Below are positions 734 through 10,870 of a stretch of DNA of 11,868 bases, one piece after another. Under the pieces are notes generated by a model. It did no database searches and had not been told where the DNA came from. It was given only the letters and a program-made list of their open reading frames with translations. The DNA lies in the IMG/VR virus record IMGVR_UViG_2778261165_000018, positions 1 through 11,868 of that record, one strand, 5' to 3'. The number at the start of each line of letters is the position of its first letter. Within the stretch, counting starts at the first letter, position 1. Both the position numbers and the translations under genes were made by a program. This stretch comes from a virus. Taxonomy: Duplodnaviria > Heunggongvirae > Uroviricota > Caudoviricetes.

Positions 734-1810
734 TCAGAGCAGTAAGTACGTTTTTTCTCGCTCATCAAGATACATTTTTGTTGTCTTCTCCGATGTGTGA
801 CCAAGTAGGCGCTGGGCAAATTCTTCTCCACATGTTTCTTTGTACAATCGTCCAGCCAGACTTCTGATCTCGTGAAAAGTTGGTGGGTTTTCACTGAACT
901 GGATACCTGTTAATTTTCTGGCTGCGACAAATTTTTTTGTCAGGCCATCCGGGTGAATGCTGCCGTCAGGGCTGTTTTTTCTAATCCCGGCACTGATTAG
1001 ATAATCTCCCCGGCTTACCAGGCGGCACCGTTCAACTACTGTACCAAGCCGTAGACCAGCGACAGGAAGGCTGAGTGACAGGGGGATAGCAATCATCATT
1101 CCTGTCTTAATTTGCCTGATGTGGAGACGATCATCATAAATATCACTGAACCGCATATTCGTTATGTCTTCGCGACGTTGTCCTGTTACAAGGGCTAAAT
1201 CCATAGCTAATGGGAACCATGCCGGCAGTTGATCTGCTGCCTCCCTGATGCAGTTGTATGTCTTTAGTTTCAGTCGTTCTCTTGTAACTACTATTTTCGG
1301 TGCTCTTGTTGGCGTTACTGGATTTTGAGATATACGTCCTTCAACAATGGCCTCGCGAAACATATCAGACAACACAGAACGCATTGATCCTGCCATTGTG
1401 TTTTTCCCTCCTTCAATCCACAAATCAAGAAACTCGGCAATATGGCGAGTTGTTATTTCTGTCAGTAAAATCCCTCCCAATTTTTCTTTTATTGTCTCCA
1501 GTTGATTTACCCGAATTTTATAAGTATTTCTGGACACTTTTCTCCTTATAAGAATCGTTTTGTAACGTTCAATCCAGTCTGCCATAGTAAATGAGTCGAA
1601 CCCTTTAAGCTTTTCAATTAAGGCAGCAGGAGAGTAGTTTTTGTATATATAATGATTTGCTTCAATTGCCTGCGCTACTGCATCTCTTCTTGAAATTTTA
1701 CCTAGTGTAAATTCTTCTTTCGTCAGAGGGTTGCGCCAGTAATATGCTTTGTCCCTCCTTCGATATGTTAAGTTTTTAGGCAAATTGGGATCGTATTTTT
1801 TCCGCTGCAT
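734..1810 (-). CDS. int: Lambda-family tyrosine integrase, 358 aa
   Basis: Collinear with lambda Int as recalled: N-terminal arm-binding region ([15 protein letters not shown]), catalytic-region motifs ([40 protein letters not shown]). RBS GGAGAAG 8 nt upstream of ATG at 1810. Confidence 0.9.
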
Positions 1811-2595: not shown

Positions 2596-3405
2596 TTATT
2601 CTTCTGAATTATCGATTACACTGTATTCCCCGGTTAATACAGAGGAGTCTGCCGGATCGATTGTCAGTGGTTCCTTTTCATCCATTGATACTGCACGCTG
2701 GATTTCAATTGAGACTGGCAGGTATTTAAACAGGCGACGAATAGCCGTTTTTTTTGCCATTTCTTCCCAGTGAGTTACCCATGGCCCGTTATTACCAGCC
2801 TTACTCTGGCTGCGCACCAGTTCAATCTGTTTGCGCGTCATAACTTCAAACTGAGTCCCTCCGTCTTTCAGTCTTGCGACAGCATAGACGTGGGTCACTG
2901 GTGCATCTTCGTTTTCTCCCGGGCGGTGTATTAACTTTTCATCAAGGCCAAATTCAAAACTAAACTCGTCACCTTCACGGACAACACGGGCTGACAGGCT
3001 GGCGATTTGACCAGAACGGCGAGCCAGATCAATCATGCCGCGATAACCAATGATTAGCTGAACGTTCTTTTTACCGCTCTTTTCGTTTTTATTACCAAAA
3101 GGCAGTAAATATGCGTGGCCGAGGGCGCTACCTGGCTCAAGGCCGAGCTGTGAACACTGAACGATCGCACTGACAAAACTCATGGTGTCACAGTTTCCTA
3201 GCGCCGGAACCTTACGAATTTCTGTGGTGGCGATACGTATCATTCGTTCAGCCGTCATATGGCGTGGGAGAGCTGCTGCCAGTTGCTCTTTCATTGATGG
3301 CTGATTAATAAAGCTGATCACGTCGTTATTTTTTACTGCTGCTGGTGCACGGTTTCCCTGGGTTTTTTGCAGATCGGCTTTTGCGATAGGTGGTTGCTTA
3401 GTCAT
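2596..3405 (-). CDS. recT: RecT single-strand annealing recombinase, 269 aa
   Basis: [27 protein letters not shown]... matches recalled Rac RecT over its whole length. RBS GGAG 7 nt upstream. Start overlaps the recE stop (3398-3405), indicating translational coupling. Confidence 0.9.
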
Positions 3406-6073
3406 TTGCATACTCCTTAGCCCAGCGGGGCAGTGATAACGTTTTAATAGCTGGCCATTCATCGGTATTCAGGCAGTCAGCCAGGGTCCTCAGATTGCGG
3501 TGATATTCCTGCTGGCCTGCCAGTTTTGCTTCTTCGCCCATCATGAAAATCTCAACCGGGTAACGTCCGCATTCAACAGTTGTGCTGGCAACCAGAAAAA
3601 CGAAAGTTGGCAGCACGCCAAACTGTGCTTCATAACCGTCACTGTAGAATGCATCCTGAACGTGATAGCGGTAGTCGTAATAAGCCGTTTTGAATCGTTG
3701 AATATCCGCTGTGGTTTTCACGTCCATGATCCAGTGAAATTCAGGAATAATTTTGTCCGGACGGCACCGACACAAAATTCCTGTTTCAGGATCTTCCCAG
3801 TAAATTGATGATTCAGCGTGTCCGGCGCTTTCAACAAGCCATTGACCCAGCGGCAAAGCCATAACGCTCTGATACATGAGTTCAATTTTCCGGCCTTCTT
3901 CGGCAGTGATAACCGTTTTTCCTGTGCTTGCGCATTCCATCAGAAACGCTTTCTCCTCTTCTTTTCCGGCGGTTGTACGGCGGTTAAATTCAGGTGCCAC
4001 GATAAAGCGGTTACTGAATTCTTCCGGTTCAAGTACACGGCAGTGGAAAGCGGTTCCTAAATCGAGCGTTTTTGTCTTTGTGGTGTCCACTGGGGCATTT
4101 TTACGCCACAAATACAGAGCCGGAGTATCAGCAATGTCGTCGAGCTGAGACTTACTGACACCGGGACCCGCGTGGTAATTCTCATTCGAAATTCCGTAAT
4201 AAATACCAGGCTCTATGTCTCCTGCGATTACGGGATCTGCGACTTCGCCAGTTTCATCACTGCAATCGCGATGCGGATCGCTGCCAGCATTCTCATTGTG
4301 CGGATGTTCAGGGCCTTCCATTTCCTCCGGATCTTTTTCCTGAGATTCATCCAGATTTTCTTCATTAAAGGTTTCCTGATACGTGGTGTCGCCCATCACC
4401 GCGCCACAATCAGGGCAGTTGCCGCCACCGCTCTGACCGCAGGCGGCACAGACTTTTTCCGGTTCCTGTTGCGCTACTGGTTCAGATTGTTTCGTTTCTG
4501 GCTCGTTTTTCTGTGCATTTGGGCTGTTTTGTTCCGCTTTCTGGTTGTTTTGTTCCGATTCGGGCTGGTTCTGGTTCACAGAATCTCGGGTTTCAATTCC
4601 CTTAACCCATTTCGGATCATTCGGGTCGCTAATCCCTTCAACAAATTCTCCGCGAGAGGCAGCCAGCAATTTGTCGGCATCGACAGGATTTTTGGGCGGA
4701 ATGGTTTTCCGGGCTTCATGGAGTTCTGCCCGCAGTTTCTGATATTTCGCATCAACAGAATTTACCTGTGACTGAGCATCCAGCGGCTGCGTGTCCTGAT
4801 GATGTTCAGTTGCATCCGGTTCCACTGTTTCAGCCGTTGCCTGTTTATCTGCCATTGCGCAAGATGGTTGCGGTTTTTCTTCACCATCGTGTTTTCCTTC
4901 TTCTGTTACACGCTGCGGCATCGGGGCAGAGGAACGACCGCAGGCAATATCCACGATTTCCGGATCAGGGTTGGCATGATCGGTTTCAATCAGCACCTTG
5001 TTCAGATATTCAGTGACATGCGCAGGGATAACCTCGATCCCAATTGGTGCTTCTTTTACGGACGCAACCACGATGGCGCGGGAATAATCCAGCCCGCCAG
5101 GCATGGTGATGAATTTGTCGCGGAAAACAGAAAAGGGCGGTTTATTTTCAGCGATAATTTCCTCGACACGTTTAGCGTGTGCCGGATGAAGGTTATAAAT
5201 GTCCACGTCCATTGAACGAGCCAGTACGCCAGTGGCTACGTCGCGCGCCAGTGACGTCAGATCGTGAACGAAACCTTCGCCGCGATCGGTGAGGTTCCCG
5301 CCGCCAGCATTAGCGCCGGAAGCCGTGCGCGTGATGCGTGAAACACGATTTCCTTTCATCCACTCTTTTGTCAGCAGACCGCGATCGGTGTAGTCTGCGT
5401 CCAGGTATGCTTCGAAAAAAGCAGTCATCAGCCCCAGGCTTGAATTGCCTGGATTAGGGAACACTCTGTCAGTATCACGCACCAGTTTGTGGAGATCGCG
5501 AATTTCCAGCGGGTCGAGCAGGCTGGTTTTGTGGGAAACAGCCAGGGCAGTAACAGCTGGTAGTTCTTCAGCCCGTGCAATGTGTAATGCCTGGAGTTCG
5601 TCGCGTGAAACGTGCGTTACCGGTTTTTCGCTGCCGTGTTGAGCAAGCCAGCGAATGGGCAGCTCCTGACCGGAAATCGGGAGTAGCATATTCTCCTCAA
5701 TCTCCGTCATGTCTTCGCCATTAACATTGGTATTGTCAGTGCTGGCTGGCTTGTCCTGCGCAGAGGATGAGGGCGCGATAAATACCATTGTGATGCCATC
5801 TTCCCCGCCTTTTTCGTAACGGTTGCAGAATTCCGTATCAAATACGCCTTCTGGTGGAAGGTCATCAACAACGGGCAAATTGACGCAAACAGGTTTTTTA
5901 AAGTCATCTTCATCGTAGCCAGCATCGTCAATCGCAACAGCACCACGGGAGATGGCAATGGATAATTTTTTCGCTTCAGCCCAGTAGAAACCGCCTTTAA
6001 TACCGAGACGTTTTCTTACTTTGTCATTTTTTGCTTCGTAATACAGTGGGTAAACTTGTTTATCGGTGCTCAT
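3398..6073 (-). CDS. recE: RecE exonuclease VIII, 891 aa
   Basis: C-terminal two-thirds (from [17 protein letters not shown] to the end ...[11 protein letters not shown]) matches recalled K-12 RecE, including the nuclease domain. The N-terminal roughly 110 residues differ from what I recall. ATG at 6073 with RBS GAGGT. Confidence 0.9.
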
Positions 6074-6914: not shown

Positions 6915-7419
6915 AATTATCTCCATTTTTACAAATGAATTTTGTCGATGCGGTGCCTGGTGCCTCCAGGTGACGTTAACCAGTTAACAATTAACGCCGG
7001 ATCGTGATATCACCTAAACAGATACGGGTTGTTTTTAACTGTTCCGCGTGCGCTGAGCCGCATTCACCGCATCACAAAATTCACTTTAAAAAGGACGGAC
7101 ATCAGCCAGCAATGAAACTGATGCCGCCAAAAGGTAATCAACATGGGTTGTTGCAGCGGGGTTGTCACTCAAGCGTATGGTCAACCTGACAACCCGGTGC
7201 TCCACAGGGGGAGGGAGAATAGCACCCCTGCCATACTTACCGCCGCGCCATTTCGCGGATTGCCACAACCGGAAGCGCACGGTCGAAGAAATTTAAAGAC
7301 AAGCCTTCTAAGGGAAAAACACCTCCTCCGTGCGCTTTCGTGTTGTGCGCCTGTCTTTTTACCACTTCAGGCTCGGTGGTATACTGGAGTTCTCACACAA
7401 CCAGTAATAAGGTATTCCG

Positions 7420-7614
7420 ATGGATAATAAAGACAAAGCCTGGCTACTTGCTTTAGCTTTCAGCATCAGATCGCAGCGAGAAACAACTCATCAAGAATTT
7501 TTCTCGGAAATCGAGAATGCTGAGAATGAGTTTTTGTCACTACTCAATGAACGTGATGCTAAAAAAAGCGCCGATTCACTTAAGGCTTGGGCGAAACTAG
7601 GCTCTTCAAAATAA
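7420..7614 (+). CDS. Hypothetical 64 aa protein in the position K-12 Rac gives to sieB
   Basis: ATG at 7420 with RBS AAGGT 6 nt upstream. Candidate promoter TTTTAC (7357-7362), 17 nt spacer, TATACT (7380-7385). No hydrophobic segment, so unlike a SieB membrane protein. Confidence 0.4.
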   Translation: MDNKDKAWLLALAFSIRSQRETTHQEFFSEIENAENEFLSLLNERDAKKSADSLKAWAKLGSSK

Positions 7615-7798
7615 TTGCTTCTGTAGCGGCATGAACAACTGTTTTTGCCGCCTCTTCAACTTCCTTGTCTGGACGACCAGCCTTTACTTTTTCTGCAATG
7701 ACCTCCAGCACAGTTGGAAGAACCTTGCTAATAAGCATGGCTGCCACATCTTTGCTGCACAATTGACCGTTAATAACAACCAGATCTTCACCAACCAT
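7580..7798 (-). CDS. Hypothetical 72 aa protein (possibly the intact form of the short ydaF/ydaG genes of K-12 Rac)
   Basis: ATG at 7798 with strong RBS AAGGGG 7 nt upstream. The track ORF extends to a TTG at 7855 without an RBS. Its 3' end overlaps the convergent 64 aa gene by 35 nt. Confidence 0.5.
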   Translation of the reverse strand: MVGEDLVVINGQLCSKDVAAMLISKVLPTVLEVIAEKVKAGRPDKEVEEAAKTVVHAATEAIILKSLVSPKP

Positions 7799-7977
7799 CT
7801 TTTTTCCCCTTAACGCCGGGTGGCGGAACGTTTTATCTACTGCGCTTTGTATCAATCAACAACTGCCGTCATGTTCGTATGCCTCAGGCTGGCTACTTAG
7901 CCCTGTTCAGTGGCTGGATAACTCGAGGTATTGTCCTGCCGTTCTCTGGTGGGGCGTTGTTTGGATATGACAAATGC

Positions 7978-7990
7978 TCACATATCGTGA
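7978..7990 (-). promoter_or_regulatory. Isolated operator-like site TCACGATATGTGA (read on the minus strand)
   Basis: Exact match to the TCACG-N3-TGTGA motif found three times in the racR/ydaS intergenic region. A perfect TTGACA lies on the minus strand at 8003-7998. Confidence 0.4.
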
Positions 7991-8043
7991 GTGATTTGTC
8001 AACTCAATATGTGAGCAATGTTGTTTTTGGATTTTTGATGGAC

Positions 8044-8076
8044 AAAAAAAGCCCTCGCTAATAGCGAGAGCTTTTT
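8044..8076. terminator. Bidirectional intrinsic terminator downstream of the repressor gene
   Basis: A7 (8044-8050), hairpin GCCCTCGCT/AGCGAGAGC (8051-8071), then TTTTT (8072-8076). Has terminator form in both orientations. Confidence 0.6.
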
Positions 8077-8102
8077 GATTGGAATCGAGGGAGATTAAAG
8101 GT

Positions 8103-8492
8103 TTAGGAGGATTTTTTCTGTTGCCTGCTTCTTAGATATTTTTCCACATACTCATCAAGCTCTTGAAGACGGATTTCGAACAGATCAATCATGCGTGCTT
8201 GTTCTGATCCCGGGAGCTGATTAAACAGCTCTAGCATTTTTTTCTGGTTATCATTTAACCATGAGTACGTGTTTTCCTGTTCACCGAACATTAATTCTGC
8301 GGGGGAAATGCCTAGTACTTGGCCGAGGATGATCGCATCCTCAGCCCCCACACTCCTGGTGCCAGCTTCGTAGTTAGCAATACGAGAAGAACCTGACCAA
8401 CCACATAGTTTTGCCAGGTTTCCCATACTTAATCCTCGATTTAGGCGAGTGGCTTTTAGGCGCTCGCCTATTTGTTCTGCAATCGTTTTCAT
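8103..8492 (-). CDS. racR: Prophage repressor, XRE/Cro-C1 family HTH (RacR-like), 129 aa from the ATG
   Basis: HTH signature LSMGNLAKLCGWSGSSRIANYEAG. Divergent from the cro-like ydaS across an operator-bearing intergenic region. Start taken at MKTIAEQ (8492); the track ORF extends upstream from a TTG. Confidence 0.75.
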   Translation of the reverse strand: MKTIAEQIGERLKATRLNRGLSMGNLAKLCGWSGSSRIANYEAGTRSVGAEDAIILGQVLGISPAELMFGEQENTYSWLNDNQKKMLELFNQLPGSEQARMIDLFEIRLQELDEYVEKYLRSRQQKKSS

Positions 8493-8505
8493 AGTTCCGA
8501 TTTTA

Positions 8506-8567
8506 TCACGATGTGTGAAATTGGCGGTACTCACGTATCTGTAGTTGATCTCACTCACGAAATGTGA
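8506..8567. promoter_or_regulatory. Three-site operator array (OR-like) between racR and ydaS
   Basis: TCACGATGTGTGA (8506-8518), TCACGTATCTGTA (8531-8543), TCACGAAATGTGA (8555-8567). Near-palindromic 13-mers spaced 25 and 24 bp centre to centre. Confidence 0.55.
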
Positions 8568-8572
8568 ATAAT
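8545..8572 (+). promoter_or_regulatory. Candidate rightward promoter for ydaS (pR-like)
   Basis: -35 TTGATC (8545-8550), 16 nt spacer, -10 AATAAT (8567-8572). Operator site 3 overlaps the spacer and -10. Confidence 0.35.
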
Positions 8573-8586
8573 AGAAACAGGAGGTA

Positions 8587-8832
8587 ATGATGAACAAAAT
8601 TTCAACATATCGAAAACAGCTTGGGCTGTCTCAAAGACAACTTGCTGTTCAGTTAGGGTGGATACAAAGCCGACTGGCAAATTACGAAGCAAATTTTCGT
8701 ACCCCTGGGCTAGAGGAGTGCAGAAAAATTGTTTCTACCCTTAATCGGCTTGGTGCTCATTGTGGACTTGACGATGTATTCCCCCCAGACGGTAAGCATA
8801 GCGAAAACAGCATAGGAGCGGTTGATTCATGA
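8587..8832 (+). CDS. ydaS: Cro-like HTH regulator YdaS
   Basis: HTH region LSQRQLAVQLGWIQSRLANYE. RBS GAGG fits the second ATG at 8590 better. Stop overlaps the ydaT start (ATGA at 8829-8832). Confidence 0.8.
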   Translation: MMNKISTYRKQLGLSQRQLAVQLGWIQSRLANYEANFRTPGLEECRKIVSTLNRLGAHCGLDDVFPPDGKHSENSIGAVDS

Positions 8833-9251
8833 AAATCAGGCATGAGCACATCGAATCAGTGTTGTTAGCCCTGGCAGCCGAAAAAGGGCAGGCGTGGGTC
8901 GCTAACGCAATTACTGAAGAATATCTGCGCCAGGGGGGCGGCGAATTGCCCCTTGTACCAGGCAAGGACTGGAACAATCAGCAGAATATCTATCACCGTT
9001 GGTTGAAAGGTGAAACGAAAGCGCAAAGGGAAAAAATTCAGAAACTCATCCCTGCGGTTCTGGCAATTCTTCCGCGCGAGCTGCGTCACCGACTCTGCAT
9101 CTTCGATACCCTGGAACGCCGTGCATTACTGGCGGCGCAGGAAGCGTTGAGTACGGCAATTGATGCGCATGATGATGCAGTACAGGCCGTTTACCGGAAA
9201 GCACATTTCAGCGGTGGTGGGTCGCCCGGCGATTCTGTCGTAGTGCATTGA
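8829..9251 (+). CDS. ydaT: YdaT-like protein (reported toxic partner of YdaS in Rac), 140 aa
   Basis: MKIRHEHIESVLLALAAEKGQAWVANAITEEY... matches recalled K-12 YdaT in length and sequence. Translationally coupled to ydaS. Confidence 0.8.
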   Translation: MKIRHEHIESVLLALAAEKGQAWVANAITEEYLRQGGGELPLVPGKDWNNQQNIYHRWLKGETKAQREKIQKLIPAVLAILPRELRHRLCIFDTLERRALLAAQEALSTAIDAHDDAVQAVYRKAHFSGGGSPGDSVVVH

Positions 9252-9296
9252 TTGAAATTAATCGTGCCGGATTGTTTTGTTCGGTATCAGTTAAAT

Positions 9297-9714
9297 GTAA
9301 CGCTGCGAGCGTTACAAGGTGAAAACAAATGGCTTCAAACTGGATAAAGCTCGAGGTTATTACGCCGGATAAGCCGGAAATATTCAGGCTTGCTGAGATT
9401 CTGAATATTGATCCAGATGCCGCATTAGGGAAGGTTATTCGCTTCTGGGCATGGGCGGATCAACAAATGATAGACGGTAATGCAGATTGTAACGCTCGCG
9501 GCGTTACAAAAAGTGCAATAGATCGCATCACTTTTATGGCTGGTTTTGCTGATGCGTTAATTCAGGTTGGATGGCTGGTCGAAAATGACGTTGGGCTTTC
9601 TCTACCTAACTTTGAACGTCATAACGGAAAAAGCTCTAAAAAACGGGCGGTTACAAACGAGCGAGTTACAAAAATACGCGAACTGAAACGAAAAGGTAAC
9701 GCTGCCAGCGTTAC
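9297..9714. repeat. Iteron-like 19-bp palindromes GTAACGCT-N3-AGCGTTAC (three good copies and one degenerate)
   Basis: GTAACGCTGCGAGCGTTAC (9297-9315, just upstream of the ydaU-like start), GTAACGCTCGCGGCGTTAC (9489-9507), degenerate GTTACAAACGAGCGAGTTACA (9650-9670), GTAACGCTGCCAGCGTTAC (9696-9714). An acidic linker with (GAGGAA)3 and an AT-rich patch follow at 9736-9775. Confidence 0.5.
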
Positions 9715-10117
9715 ACAAACGGATCAAAAAGCGTTACCAGAGGAAGAGGAAGAGGAAGATATAAATACTGATCTCCCCCTAAATCCCCCTCGTCAAAAAC
9801 GAGCGTCTAAAAAATTCGAGCCGGAGGCTATTGAGCTGCCCGATTGGTTGCCGGAAACACTCTGGCATGAGTGGGTCCGGTTCAGACAGGCATTGCGAAA
9901 ACCGATTCGAACGGAGCAGGGCGCTAACGGGGCGATACGGGAACTGGAAAAATTCCGTCAGCAGGGTTTTACACCTGAGCAGGTGATTCGACACAGCATC
10001 GCCAATGAATACCAGGGCCTGTTCGCGCCGAAAGGTGTTCGGCCTGAGACGTTGCTCCGACAGGTTAACACCGTCTCGTTGCCGGACAGTGCGATCCCGC
10101 CAGGCTTCAGGGGGTAA
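9329..10117 (+). CDS. ydaU: Phage replication initiation protein (YdaU-like, lambda O analogue), 262 aa
   Basis: RBS AGGTGA 6 nt upstream of the ATG. Lies immediately upstream of the DnaC-like loader, contains the palindromic repeats and a central acidic linker (EEEEEED). Family assignment is from memory. Confidence 0.7.
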   Translation: MASNWIKLEVITPDKPEIFRLAEILNIDPDAALGKVIRFWAWADQQMIDGNADCNARGVTKSAIDRITFMAGFADALIQVGWLVENDVGLSLPNFERHNGKSSKKRAVTNERVTKIRELKRKGNAASVTQTDQKALPEEEEEEDINTDLPLNPPRQKRASKKFEPEAIELPDWLPETLWHEWVRFRQALRKPIRTEQGANGAIRELEKFRQQGFTPEQVIRHSIANEYQGLFAPKGVRPETLLRQVNTVSLPDSAIPPGFRG

Positions 10118-10123
10118 CGGACC

Positions 10124-10870
10124 ATGAAAAATATTGCGACAGGCGGCGTTCTGGAACGCATCCGCCGACTGACCCCGCCACATGTAACCGCCCCATTCAG
10201 AACGGTAGCGGAGTGGCGCGAGTGGCAACTTGCTGAAGGCCAGAAACGTAGCGAGGAGATCAACCGCCTGAATCGCCAGTTGCGGGTGGAAAAAATTCTG
10301 AATCGCTCAGGCATCCAGCCGTTGCACCGTAAATGCTCGTTTGCGAATTACCAGGTGCAGAACGACGGCCAGCGATACGCGTTAAGCCAGGCGAAATCCA
10401 TCACCGATGAACTGATGACCGGGTGTACAAATTTTGCGTTCAGCGGAAAACCTGGTACCGGGAAGAATCACTTAGCGGCAGCTATCGGGAATCGCCTGCT
10501 GAAAGACGGTCAGACAGTGATTGTGGTTACCGTGGCTGATGTTATGAGCGCCCTGCACGCCAGCTATGACGACGGGCAGTCAGGCGAAAAATTTTTGCGG
10601 GAGCTGTGCGAAGTGGATCTGCTGGTTCTTGATGAAATTGGCATTCAGCGCGAGACAAAAAACGAGCAGGTGGTGCTGCACCAGATTGTTGATCGCCGGA
10701 CAGCGTCGATGCGCAGCGTGGGGATGCTGACAAACCTGAACTATGAGGCCATGAAAACATTGCTCGGCGAGCGGATTATGGATCGCATGACCATGAACGG
10801 CGGGCGATGGGTGAATTTTAACTGGGAGAGCTGGCGTCCGAATGTCGTCCAGCCAGGAATTGCGAAGTGA
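10124..10870 (+). CDS. ydaV: DnaC-like replicative helicase loader (AAA+ ATPase, IstB-like), 248 aa
   Basis: Walker [14 protein letters not shown] and Walker [10 protein letters not shown]. Length and sequence match recalled K-12 YdaV. Confidence 0.9.

Follow-up and report, generated by a model that had tools for sequence, protein, structure and literature searches.

Which proteins control the 94-bp gap (positions 8493 to 8586) between a repressor gene and a divergent cro-like gene in this prophage DNA, and does the gap hold a lambda-like switch? The original prediction described three evenly spaced near-palindromes in it, set between racR and ydaS. We analyzed the gap within its window, the whole stretch of 11,868 bp, and compared it with close variants, diverged relatives and characterized immunity regions. 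The gap probably represents the right operator (OR) of the immunity region of a Rac-like lambdoid prophage, arranged as a lambda-like switch. This reading is built at the sequence level from the sites themselves, from how they are spaced and conserved, from where they lie with respect to promoter consensus matches, and from their inheritance together with the repressor gene.

The repressor and Cro-like protein differ from RacR and YdaS

The repressor gene (8103..8492, minus strand) encodes a DicA-type protein of 129 amino acids with an N-terminal Cro/CI-type helix-turn-helix (HTH) and a short helical C-terminal domain. A longer, TTG-started open reading frame of 164 amino acids (8103..8597) was rejected, since every homologue starts at MKT. 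The Pfam matches of the repressor are to HTH families only (HTH_31, HTH_3, and HTH_19), and an S24 peptidase domain is absent, as judged from the Pfam search of the 129-aa protein and from a structural model with only helices after residue 80. Although the original prediction had named this gene racR, BLASTP gave no alignment of its product with K-12 RacR at an E value of ≤100, whereas K-12 DicA aligned at full length with 29% identity (132 columns, E = 6e-15). The AF2 model (37 homologues, pLDDT 90), a monomer that is not directly informative on oligomers, comprises a five-helix HTH (residues 4 to 69), a linker, and helices at residues 81 to 91 and 95 to 128. Its N-terminal domain lies close to C-proteins and to the heads of the P22 c2, 434, and lambda repressors (rmsd of ~1 Å). 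The best PDB match over most of the length was SinR (1b0n_A, E = 6e-4), a poor fit with a TM of ~0.43 to 0.53 and an rmsd of 7.3 Å, and a sequence search of solved structures returned generic HTH matches only. A scan of genome contigs with the repressor included one irrelevant distant locus among the matches listed.

The cro-like gene (8590..8832, plus strand) encodes 80 amino acids from the ATG at 8590, or 81 from position 8587. It had been called ydaS, but its product has no BLASTP similarity to K-12 YdaS and instead matches Pfam HTH_3, together with HTH_19 and HTH_31. Similarity to DicC was likewise not found, and the best solved-structure match by sequence was PDB 28tn_A, a “lambda repressor-like protein” (E = 8e-15). 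Across the HTH, the repressor and the Cro-like protein are 42% identical (SSRIANYEAG versus QSRLANYEAN). The recognition region of the Cro-like protein, GWIQSRLANYE, is closely similar to the repressor's GWSGSSRIANYE, and the pattern GW..SR[ILV][AGS]NYE is common to both proteins across the family.

The third gene, ydaT (8829..9251, plus strand), is genuine; it encodes a CII-like regulator (Pfam YdaT_toxin; PHROG CII-like activator) with 95% amino-acid identity to K-12 YdaT. Of the toxic ydaS-ydaT module originally proposed for this locus, ydaT was thus borne out, while the toxic ydaS had been carried over from K-12 without basis. A neighboring ydaT does not make the two divergent genes racR and ydaS, so conclusions on toxicity in K-12 should not transfer, and the present assignments correct a tempting misannotation. 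A YdaT-box (8822-8839, plus strand, TTGATTCATGAAAATCAG) overlaps the ydaT start codon with one mismatch to TTGATT-N6-AATCAA. In K-12 Rac, ATGATTCATGAAAATCAA was footprinted at the same place, the ydaT start (PMC11879457), and a consensus YdaT-box has been given for CP-933P (PMC9986795).

The stretch from 7850 to 9300 is 100% identical to a prophage adjoining copD-yebY in Escherichia coli Z1323CEC0011, where the gene order is int, xis, ralR, recT, recE, kil, repressor, HTH gene, ydaT, and replication genes. Within this stretch, DNA-level resemblance to K-12 Rac is limited to the ydaT part. Of 5,426 complete E. coli genomes, 10 carry this cassette type, and ~150 more carry a related one.

The intergenic gap carries two exact and one degenerate operator-like site

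Two sites in the gap match TCACG-N3-TGTGA exactly: O-left (8506-8518, plus strand, TCACGATGTGTGA), the analogue of lambda OR3, and O-right (8555-8567, plus strand, TCACGAAATGTGA), the analogue of OR1. The analogue of OR2, O-mid (8531-8544, plus strand, TCACGTATCTGTAG, in which 8531-8543 reads TCACGTATCTGTA), is degenerate. With centers at 8512, 8537, and 8561, the sites are spaced by 25 and 24 bp. The predicted start positions and even spacing therefore stand, as do the first and third palindromes, but the second matches the motif at only 6 of 10 specified bases, all in its left half, TCACG. No match is registered there even with two mismatches allowed. The right half reads CTGT at N3 or TGTA at N4 and is degenerate or off-register; taken as N4 (TCACG-TATC-TGTAG), the site matches at 8 of 10.

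An exact search of the 11,868-bp window for TCACG-N3-TGTGA returned three matches where 0.01 was expected, and none of 200 shuffles reached three. Besides O-left and O-right, the third match lies at 7978-7990 on the minus strand, ~0.5 kb leftward. In Salmonella, a relative whose recognition helix is the same has the variant sites TCACGCTACGTGA, TCACGAATTGTGA, and TCACAATATGTGA, and for this reason the predicted operator motif is a 13-bp pseudo-palindrome, TCACR-N3-YGTGA, of which TCACG...TGTGA is one instance. Searches with this motif at ≤1 mismatch added no site beyond the three exact ones across the window, and no additional site in the 19-kb matching stretch of a complete genome.

Operators of two related systems were rejected as the identity of these sites. 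The RacR operators of K-12, footprinted as (T/A)TAGGC-n3-GCCTA(T/A) (PMC9638921; also PMC11879457), have no counterpart in the whole window at ≤1 mismatch. A RacR-like TAGGC-GCTC-GCCTA at 8457-8470 was set aside: it has N4 spacing, it lies in the repressor coding sequence (IGERLK), and positions 8460 and 8466 vary among close variants. The operators of CP-933P are 18-bp repeats with the consensus GTTTAGTAA (PMC8630535); no such repeat is present in the region, and the sole 1-mismatch match, at 1557, is unrelated.

The outer sites overlap two divergent promoter-like elements

A PR-like promoter on the plus strand (8545-8572) matches consensus at 9 of 12 positions, with a −35 of TTGATC (8545-8550), a 16-nt spacer, and a −10 of AATAAT (8567-8572); it reads toward the cro-like gene, ydaT, and the replication genes. 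The promoter scan found this 1 site versus 1.8 in shuffles, so the scan carries no weight alone and was used for positions. O-right fills the predicted PR spacer, and O-mid abuts the PR −35.

Leftward, a PRM-like extended −10 (TGATAAAAT, 8500..8508, minus strand) was read from the sequence as a consensus match; the minus strand around it reads ...CGTGATAAAATCGGAACTATG. O-left covers the spacer of this predicted promoter. The original prediction, which had the first site on the leftward −10 and the third on the rightward −10, holds in substance: O-left supplies the TG of the extended −10, and O-right shares base 8567 with the rightward −10. At the −35 position of the PRM-like promoter (8523-8528), the sequence ACCGCC is a poor match and differs among close variants.

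Because the extended −10 ends 7 nt upstream of the repressor ATG, the repressor mRNA is predicted to be leaderless, its 5′ end falling on or beside the A of the AUG (A8492). Relative to this predicted start, the centers of O-left and O-mid fall at about −20 and −45; in lambda, OR3 and OR2 lie at about −19 and −42. A TGnTAnAnT-like element 6 to 7 nt before the repressor ATG is visible in the relatives and in phage mEpX1. Precedents for leaderless repressor transcripts are paaR2, mapped by 5′ RACE, and lambda cI (PMC8630535).

A putative second operator lies at a leftward PL-like promoter

The third exact match, OL1 (7978-7990, minus strand, TCACGATATGTGA), falls in the spacer and extended −10 of a PL-like promoter (7974..8002, minus strand), which consists of a −35 of TTGACA (8002..7997), a 17-nt spacer, and the extended −10 TGT-GAGCAT (7982..7974). 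By the gene order of the annotated, 100%-identical stretch, this promoter points toward kil and recET; its start point is predicted near 7967. Since the scan lists a promoter only when 4 of the 6 bases of the −10 hexamer match, this one is missing from its list; GAGCAT is poor relative to consensus. A degenerate second site, OL2 (8002-8014, minus strand, TCACATATTGAGT), was read from the sequence; it abuts and overlaps the PL −35, lies 25 bp from OL1 center to center, and resembles both O-mid of the window and O-mid of mEpX1, CACGAATTGAGGTTGACT. OL1 and OL2 would be part of the same circuit as the OR sites. The PL operator set had been overlooked in the original prediction.

Between the repressor stop codon and PL lies an intrinsic terminator (8044-8076, minus strand), with the stem GCUCUCGC/GCGAGGGC followed by U7. 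Its RNA fold has −20.1 kcal/mol and a z-score of −5.3; a plus-strand version is also listed in the scan.

Substitutions in close variants avoid the half-sites

Close variants were compiled from viral contigs, complete E. coli genomes, and one deposited phage (13 sequences, 12 of them unique). Among 257 noncoding positions, 42 columns were substituted, and the substitutions were distributed unevenly: within the half-sites of the five sites, 1 of 50 positions varied, versus 41 of the other 207 noncoding positions (one-sided Fisher P = 6e-4), and within the three exact sites none of 30 varied (P = 0.003), in tests that rest on related, non-independent sequences. The sole half-site change in the 12 variants, 8535 G>A in O-mid, keeps TCACR. 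O-left, OL1, OL2, and the PR hexamers were invariant, as were the half-sites of O-right, whose spacer bases 8561 and 8562 varied. The remaining variable positions cluster in the linkers (8521-8525 and 8552-8554) and past the −10.

These patterns bear on whether the repeats might be due to chance, or a relic without present function in a decayed cryptic prophage. Defects are common in Rac-like prophages, and the matching strain does have pseudogenes downstream, in the replication region. Against this stand the excess of exact sites over expectation, the avoidance of the sites by substitutions, and the presence of a 97%-identical cassette in a deposited phage genome, and we consider the relic explanation close to refuted.

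The three-part layout persists in diverged relatives

We extended the comparison to 80 viral loci with 29 distinct repressors and to named phages and prophages, namely, an O157:H7 prophage, phages pAEv1818 (Aeromonas), Chris1 (Citrobacter), and mEpX1, and prophages of Salmonella, Pectobacterium, and Serratia. The three-part layout is common to relatives whose linkers no longer align. A CAC-N5-GTG palindrome is centered 18 to 19 nt from the repressor ATG (30 nt in pAEv1818, which has a longer gap), and a second palindrome lies within the PR spacer in all relatives examined, with 46 to 49 bp from O-left to O-right throughout. All have a TTGAC-type PR −35 at the equivalent place, and in most types a degenerate element beginning with [TA]CAC[GA] is found 6 to 9 nt upstream of it. 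At PL, the same pair of sites occurs in most relatives examined and a triple in one type; no CAC-N5-GTG was found at PL in four loci that belong to a single type, and in the Serratia locus a different gene occupies that place. At nearly every PR and PL site, the half closer to the −10 is TGTG, a constancy that probably arises because these bases also supply the TG of an extended −10. With the layout kept in relatives and the half-sites spared in close variants, the proposed likeness to lambda OR with PRM and PR is supported at the level of sequence anatomy.

The middle site is the part of this layout most open to argument. Only the two exact sites at 8506-8518 and 8555-8567 may be real OR operators, with the middle TCACG kept for promoter reasons or by descent and no lambda-style pairwise cooperativity. 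This explanation fits the failure of O-mid to match the motif at ≤2 mismatches, the variation of its right half among relatives (TGTA, TGTT, TGAG, CGTA, and ATGT), and the very weak middle element of three types (the O157 type, Chris1, and pAEv1818). It fits less well with the persistence of [TA]CAC[GA] upstream of the −35 in most diverged types, whose linkers are unalignable, with the same element upstream of the PL −35, or with a spacing of 24 to 25 bp, which suits a dimer touching its neighbors. Weak middle sites are, moreover, usual where binding is cooperative, lambda OR2 being the established case. We therefore consider an operator of only two sites unlikely. Because most relatives keep the TCACR half and its place just upstream of the PR −35, we regard O-mid as a weak but conserved candidate site rather than noise; part of this conservation may stem from a role in the promoter, as an UP-like or −35-proximal element.

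The putative operators are exchanged together with the repressor gene

Comparison with the O157:H7 prophage delimited the unit to which these sites belong. The window is 98 to 100% identical to this prophage left of 7969 and again rightward from the cro ATG (8590), versus ~45 to 80% identity in between. As delimited by the alignment, the swapped block comprises the predicted PL/OL, the terminator, the repressor gene, and the predicted OR/PR, with cro outside it. Its left edge lies approximately at the predicted PL start point (7969/7970), and its right edge is the cro start codon, ~10 nt past the PR start point, which is predicted near 8579. The Cro-like protein is accordingly 100% identical in the O157:H7 prophage, and the repressors of the two prophages are only 61% identical. 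Since operators and repressor gene both fall within the block and cro does not, the operators travel with the repressor, which argues that the putative sites are the repressor's.

The same comparison weighs against recognition of the sites by only the Cro-like protein, or by a host protein like CRP, to the exclusion of the repressor. The established CRP half-site is TGTGA, and the recognition helix of the Cro-like protein is of the repressor's type. On reading the sequence, though, the TGTGA-N6-TCACA arrangement is absent, and CRP was rejected as the identity of the sites on that ground. For Cro, the sites covary with the repressor cassette, while an identical Cro in the O157 type faces different operators. 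The presence of sites at both PL and PR is, in addition, what would be expected for a maintenance repressor. Exclusive recognition by Cro or a host factor is thus very unlikely, and recognition by the repressor remains our preferred reading.

With Cro identical next to different operators, one may ask how a single protein acts on both sets. The flanks of the PR operator are TCAC..GTGA here versus ACAC..GTGT in the O157 type. Either Cro reads the shared CACR-N3-YGTG core alone, or Cro is not matched to these sites. We tentatively raise a further proposal, which we would not yet favor: the immunity cassette ends before cro, one Cro serves at least two cassettes, and, if these are heteroimmune, Cro is a generalist on the CACR-N3-YGTG core. 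If this is true, Cro from one prophage could flip the switch of a differently immune neighbor, a departure from the classical rule by which cI, operators, and cro move and coevolve as a unit. The clear cassette edges and the common Cro offer a natural experiment on the evolution of repressor/operator specificity.

A model for the switch

In the model that we favor, repressor dimers would recognize TCACR-N3-YGTGA. The Cro-like protein would very probably recognize the same motif, given that its recognition helix is nearly the same as the repressor's. This shared helix and the helical C-terminal tail of the repressor model are indirect pointers to a lambda-type scheme, in which both proteins would occupy the sites in opposite order and the repressor would bind cooperatively. 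Repressor bound at O-right would shut off PR and with it the cro-like gene, ydaT, and the replication genes. Occupancy of O-mid would depend largely on a neighboring dimer, under a presumed cooperativity and order of filling, and could stimulate the repressor promoter, which itself has no −35. At O-left, high levels of repressor, or Cro, would turn the repressor promoter off.

On the leftward side, repressor at OL1 and OL2 would block PL, on the side of kil and recET, and as OL is 0.5 kb from OR, an OL-OR loop may form. YdaT would supply establishment transcription from its box, much as CII does. Because the repressor has no S24 self-cleavage domain, induction would be expected to proceed through an antirepressor and not through RecA-stimulated cleavage. 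No antirepressor was identified within the window; antirepressor control of short repressors is known from Gifsy prophages (PMC3121763). Bistability, which has been demonstrated for paaR2/ydaS-ydaT of CP-933P, is plausible here by analogy (PMC8630535).

Comparison with characterized immunity regions

The design principle has been textbook knowledge since lambda, with experimental demonstrations already available for Rac and CP-933P. Footprints and bistability are on record for the same architecture in Rac (PMC9638921) and CP-933P (PMC8630535). What the sequence points to here is a new immunity specificity within this known kind of switch, different from those of lambda, Rac, and CP-933P. The result is a testable operator map for one Rac-like prophage immunity type, with five candidate sites, three predicted promoters, and one terminator.

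As in lambda, divergent repressor and cro genes lie ~90 bp apart, the sites (three if the degenerate O-mid is counted) follow one another every ~24 bp, the outer two fall on promoters and the weak middle candidate beside the PR −35, a second putative operator is found at the leftward early promoter, and the repressor mRNA is probably leaderless. The sites differ from the 17-bp operators of lambda in being 13 bp long, with a TCACR-N3-YGTGA core. The repressor, at 129 amino acids, also differs in having no S24 self-cleavage domain. OL is 0.5 kb away, with two sites seen, rather than 2.4 kb, and a YdaT protein stands in place of CII.

With K-12 Rac, the locus shares the prophage type, the gene order, a 95%-identical ydaT with the YdaT-box on its ATG, and three operators between divergent genes, the middle one here being a degenerate candidate. 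In contrast, BLASTP relates neither the repressor to RacR nor the Cro-like protein to YdaS, the RacR operator motif is absent, and O-left lies outside coding sequence, whereas RacR O3 overlaps the racR ATG. CP-933P, with a gap of 97 bp, is similar in features that are in part predictions here: a leaderless repressor, operators used by both repressor and Cro-like protein, OL sites at PL, and CII-like action of YdaT. Besides the difference in operator repeats, PaaR2 starts with MQKKE and is a different protein, and a terminator follows the repressor gene here, with no paaA2-parE2.

DicA of prophage Qin is a full-length homologue of the repressor, including the C-terminal LELFNxLPxSEQ helix, and the repressor resembles those of the DicA/Gifsy type in being short and noncleavable (PMC3121763). 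The dicA-dicC gap differs, on reading its sequence, in having TGTTAG/CTAACA-type repeats and no TCACR-N3-YGTGA, and the Cro-like protein, as noted, is dissimilar to DicC.

The exact operator strings were not found in the searchable literature, and a literature search returned nothing relevant on the operators of mEpX1. The CI/Cro region of mEpX1 and of VT1-Sakai has the same OR layout, made up in order of ACACGCAACGTGA, of CACGAATTGAGG, which abuts the −35, and of TCACAAATTGTGT. Compared with our repressor, the N-terminal HTH shows 58% identity and the same recognition motif. CI of these phages differs in carrying a LexA-type S24 domain, and the DNA-binding domain is thus shared while the C-terminal domain has been swapped.

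The repressor and its predicted operators are a swapped cassette

Alignment of the window to an O157:H7 prophage, a relative with a divergent repressor, revealed sharp mosaic joints at 7969/7970 and at 8586-8590. On both sides of the exchanged segment, 98 to 100% identity was kept, covering cro, ydaT and the leader of the predicted PL transcript. By sequence comparison, the repressor gene and its predicted operators are a cassette that has been swapped relative to the O157:H7 prophage.

The DNA-binding domain of the repressor (residues 1 to 74, encoded by 8271-8492) shares 58 to 63% identity with N-terminal domains in LexA-type (S24) CI repressors from mEpX1, VT1-Sakai and many Proteus prophages. 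The N-terminal domain is common to short and S24 repressors, and therefore one operator-reading head is combined with two different C-terminal domains. Within the repressor coding sequence lies the inverted repeat TAGGC-GCTC-GCCTA (8457-8470), which encodes IGERLK. This repeat is similar to a RacR operator, but its halves are separated by 4 nt and close variants differ at two of its positions; we rejected it as a RacR-like operator, and it is probably a coincidence of the coding sequence.

Conserved elements flanking the cassette

Directly downstream of the PL-like promoter, the leader of the predicted PL transcript forms a conserved noncoding stretch (7800-7969, minus strand). Its part from approximately 7830 to 7969 and the O157:H7 prophage are essentially 100% identical, and the stretch can still be recognized in Salmonella and Pectobacterium prophages and in the viral contig L053. 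RNAalifold analysis of four sequences gave 27 base pairs, in 7 of which both partners have changed, and a long-range closing stem. No match to Rfam was detected, even at an E value of ≤1. The stretch may act as a structured leader; an antitermination-type RNA is one example.

A 60-amino-acid open reading frame on the plus strand (7879-8061), which some records list as a hypothetical protein, overlaps the predicted PL promoter with its operators and the terminator. It had no match in Pfam or PHROG and is probably not a gene.

On the other side of the cassette, a YdaT-box, TTGATTCATGAAAATCAG (8822-8839), overlaps the ydaT start codon and differs by one mismatch from the CP-933P consensus (PMC9986795). 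In the K-12 Rac prophage, a footprinted YdaT site occupies the equivalent place, on the ydaT start (PMC11879457).

Prophage context and related genomes

Right beside the integrase gene of the prophage (734..1810 on the minus strand) are two paired host small RNAs, SraC/RyeA on the minus strand (462-606) and SdsR/RyeB on the plus strand (503-602), which places the prophage at the ryeA/ryeB locus. The antitoxin small RNA RalA was found at 2168-2346 on the plus strand, scoring 216 bits where the gathering score is 170, and it overlaps the ralR toxin region of the Rac-like left arm.

Base-for-base alignment to L001, the strain that matches the window at 100% around the cassette, is confined to roughly 7200-9800. 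At the edges of this interval the alignment is only partly lost, with block identities of 0.52 and 0.65. The pattern points to indels, or to another mosaic structure, from about 9500 onward in the replication region and also in the left arm. The replication region contains pseudogenes in L001, whereas the window carries intact open reading frames at 9329..10117 and 10124..10870.

Lastly, a 97.4% identical copy of the E. coli-type cassette is present at 3001-3651 of PP818812.1, deposited as "Actinobacillus phage vB_Apl-pPE4." Its repressor is 100% identical to that of the window, and kil, recE-like and ydaT genes are also present. The deposited host is Actinobacillus pleuropneumoniae, an assignment that looks doubtful.
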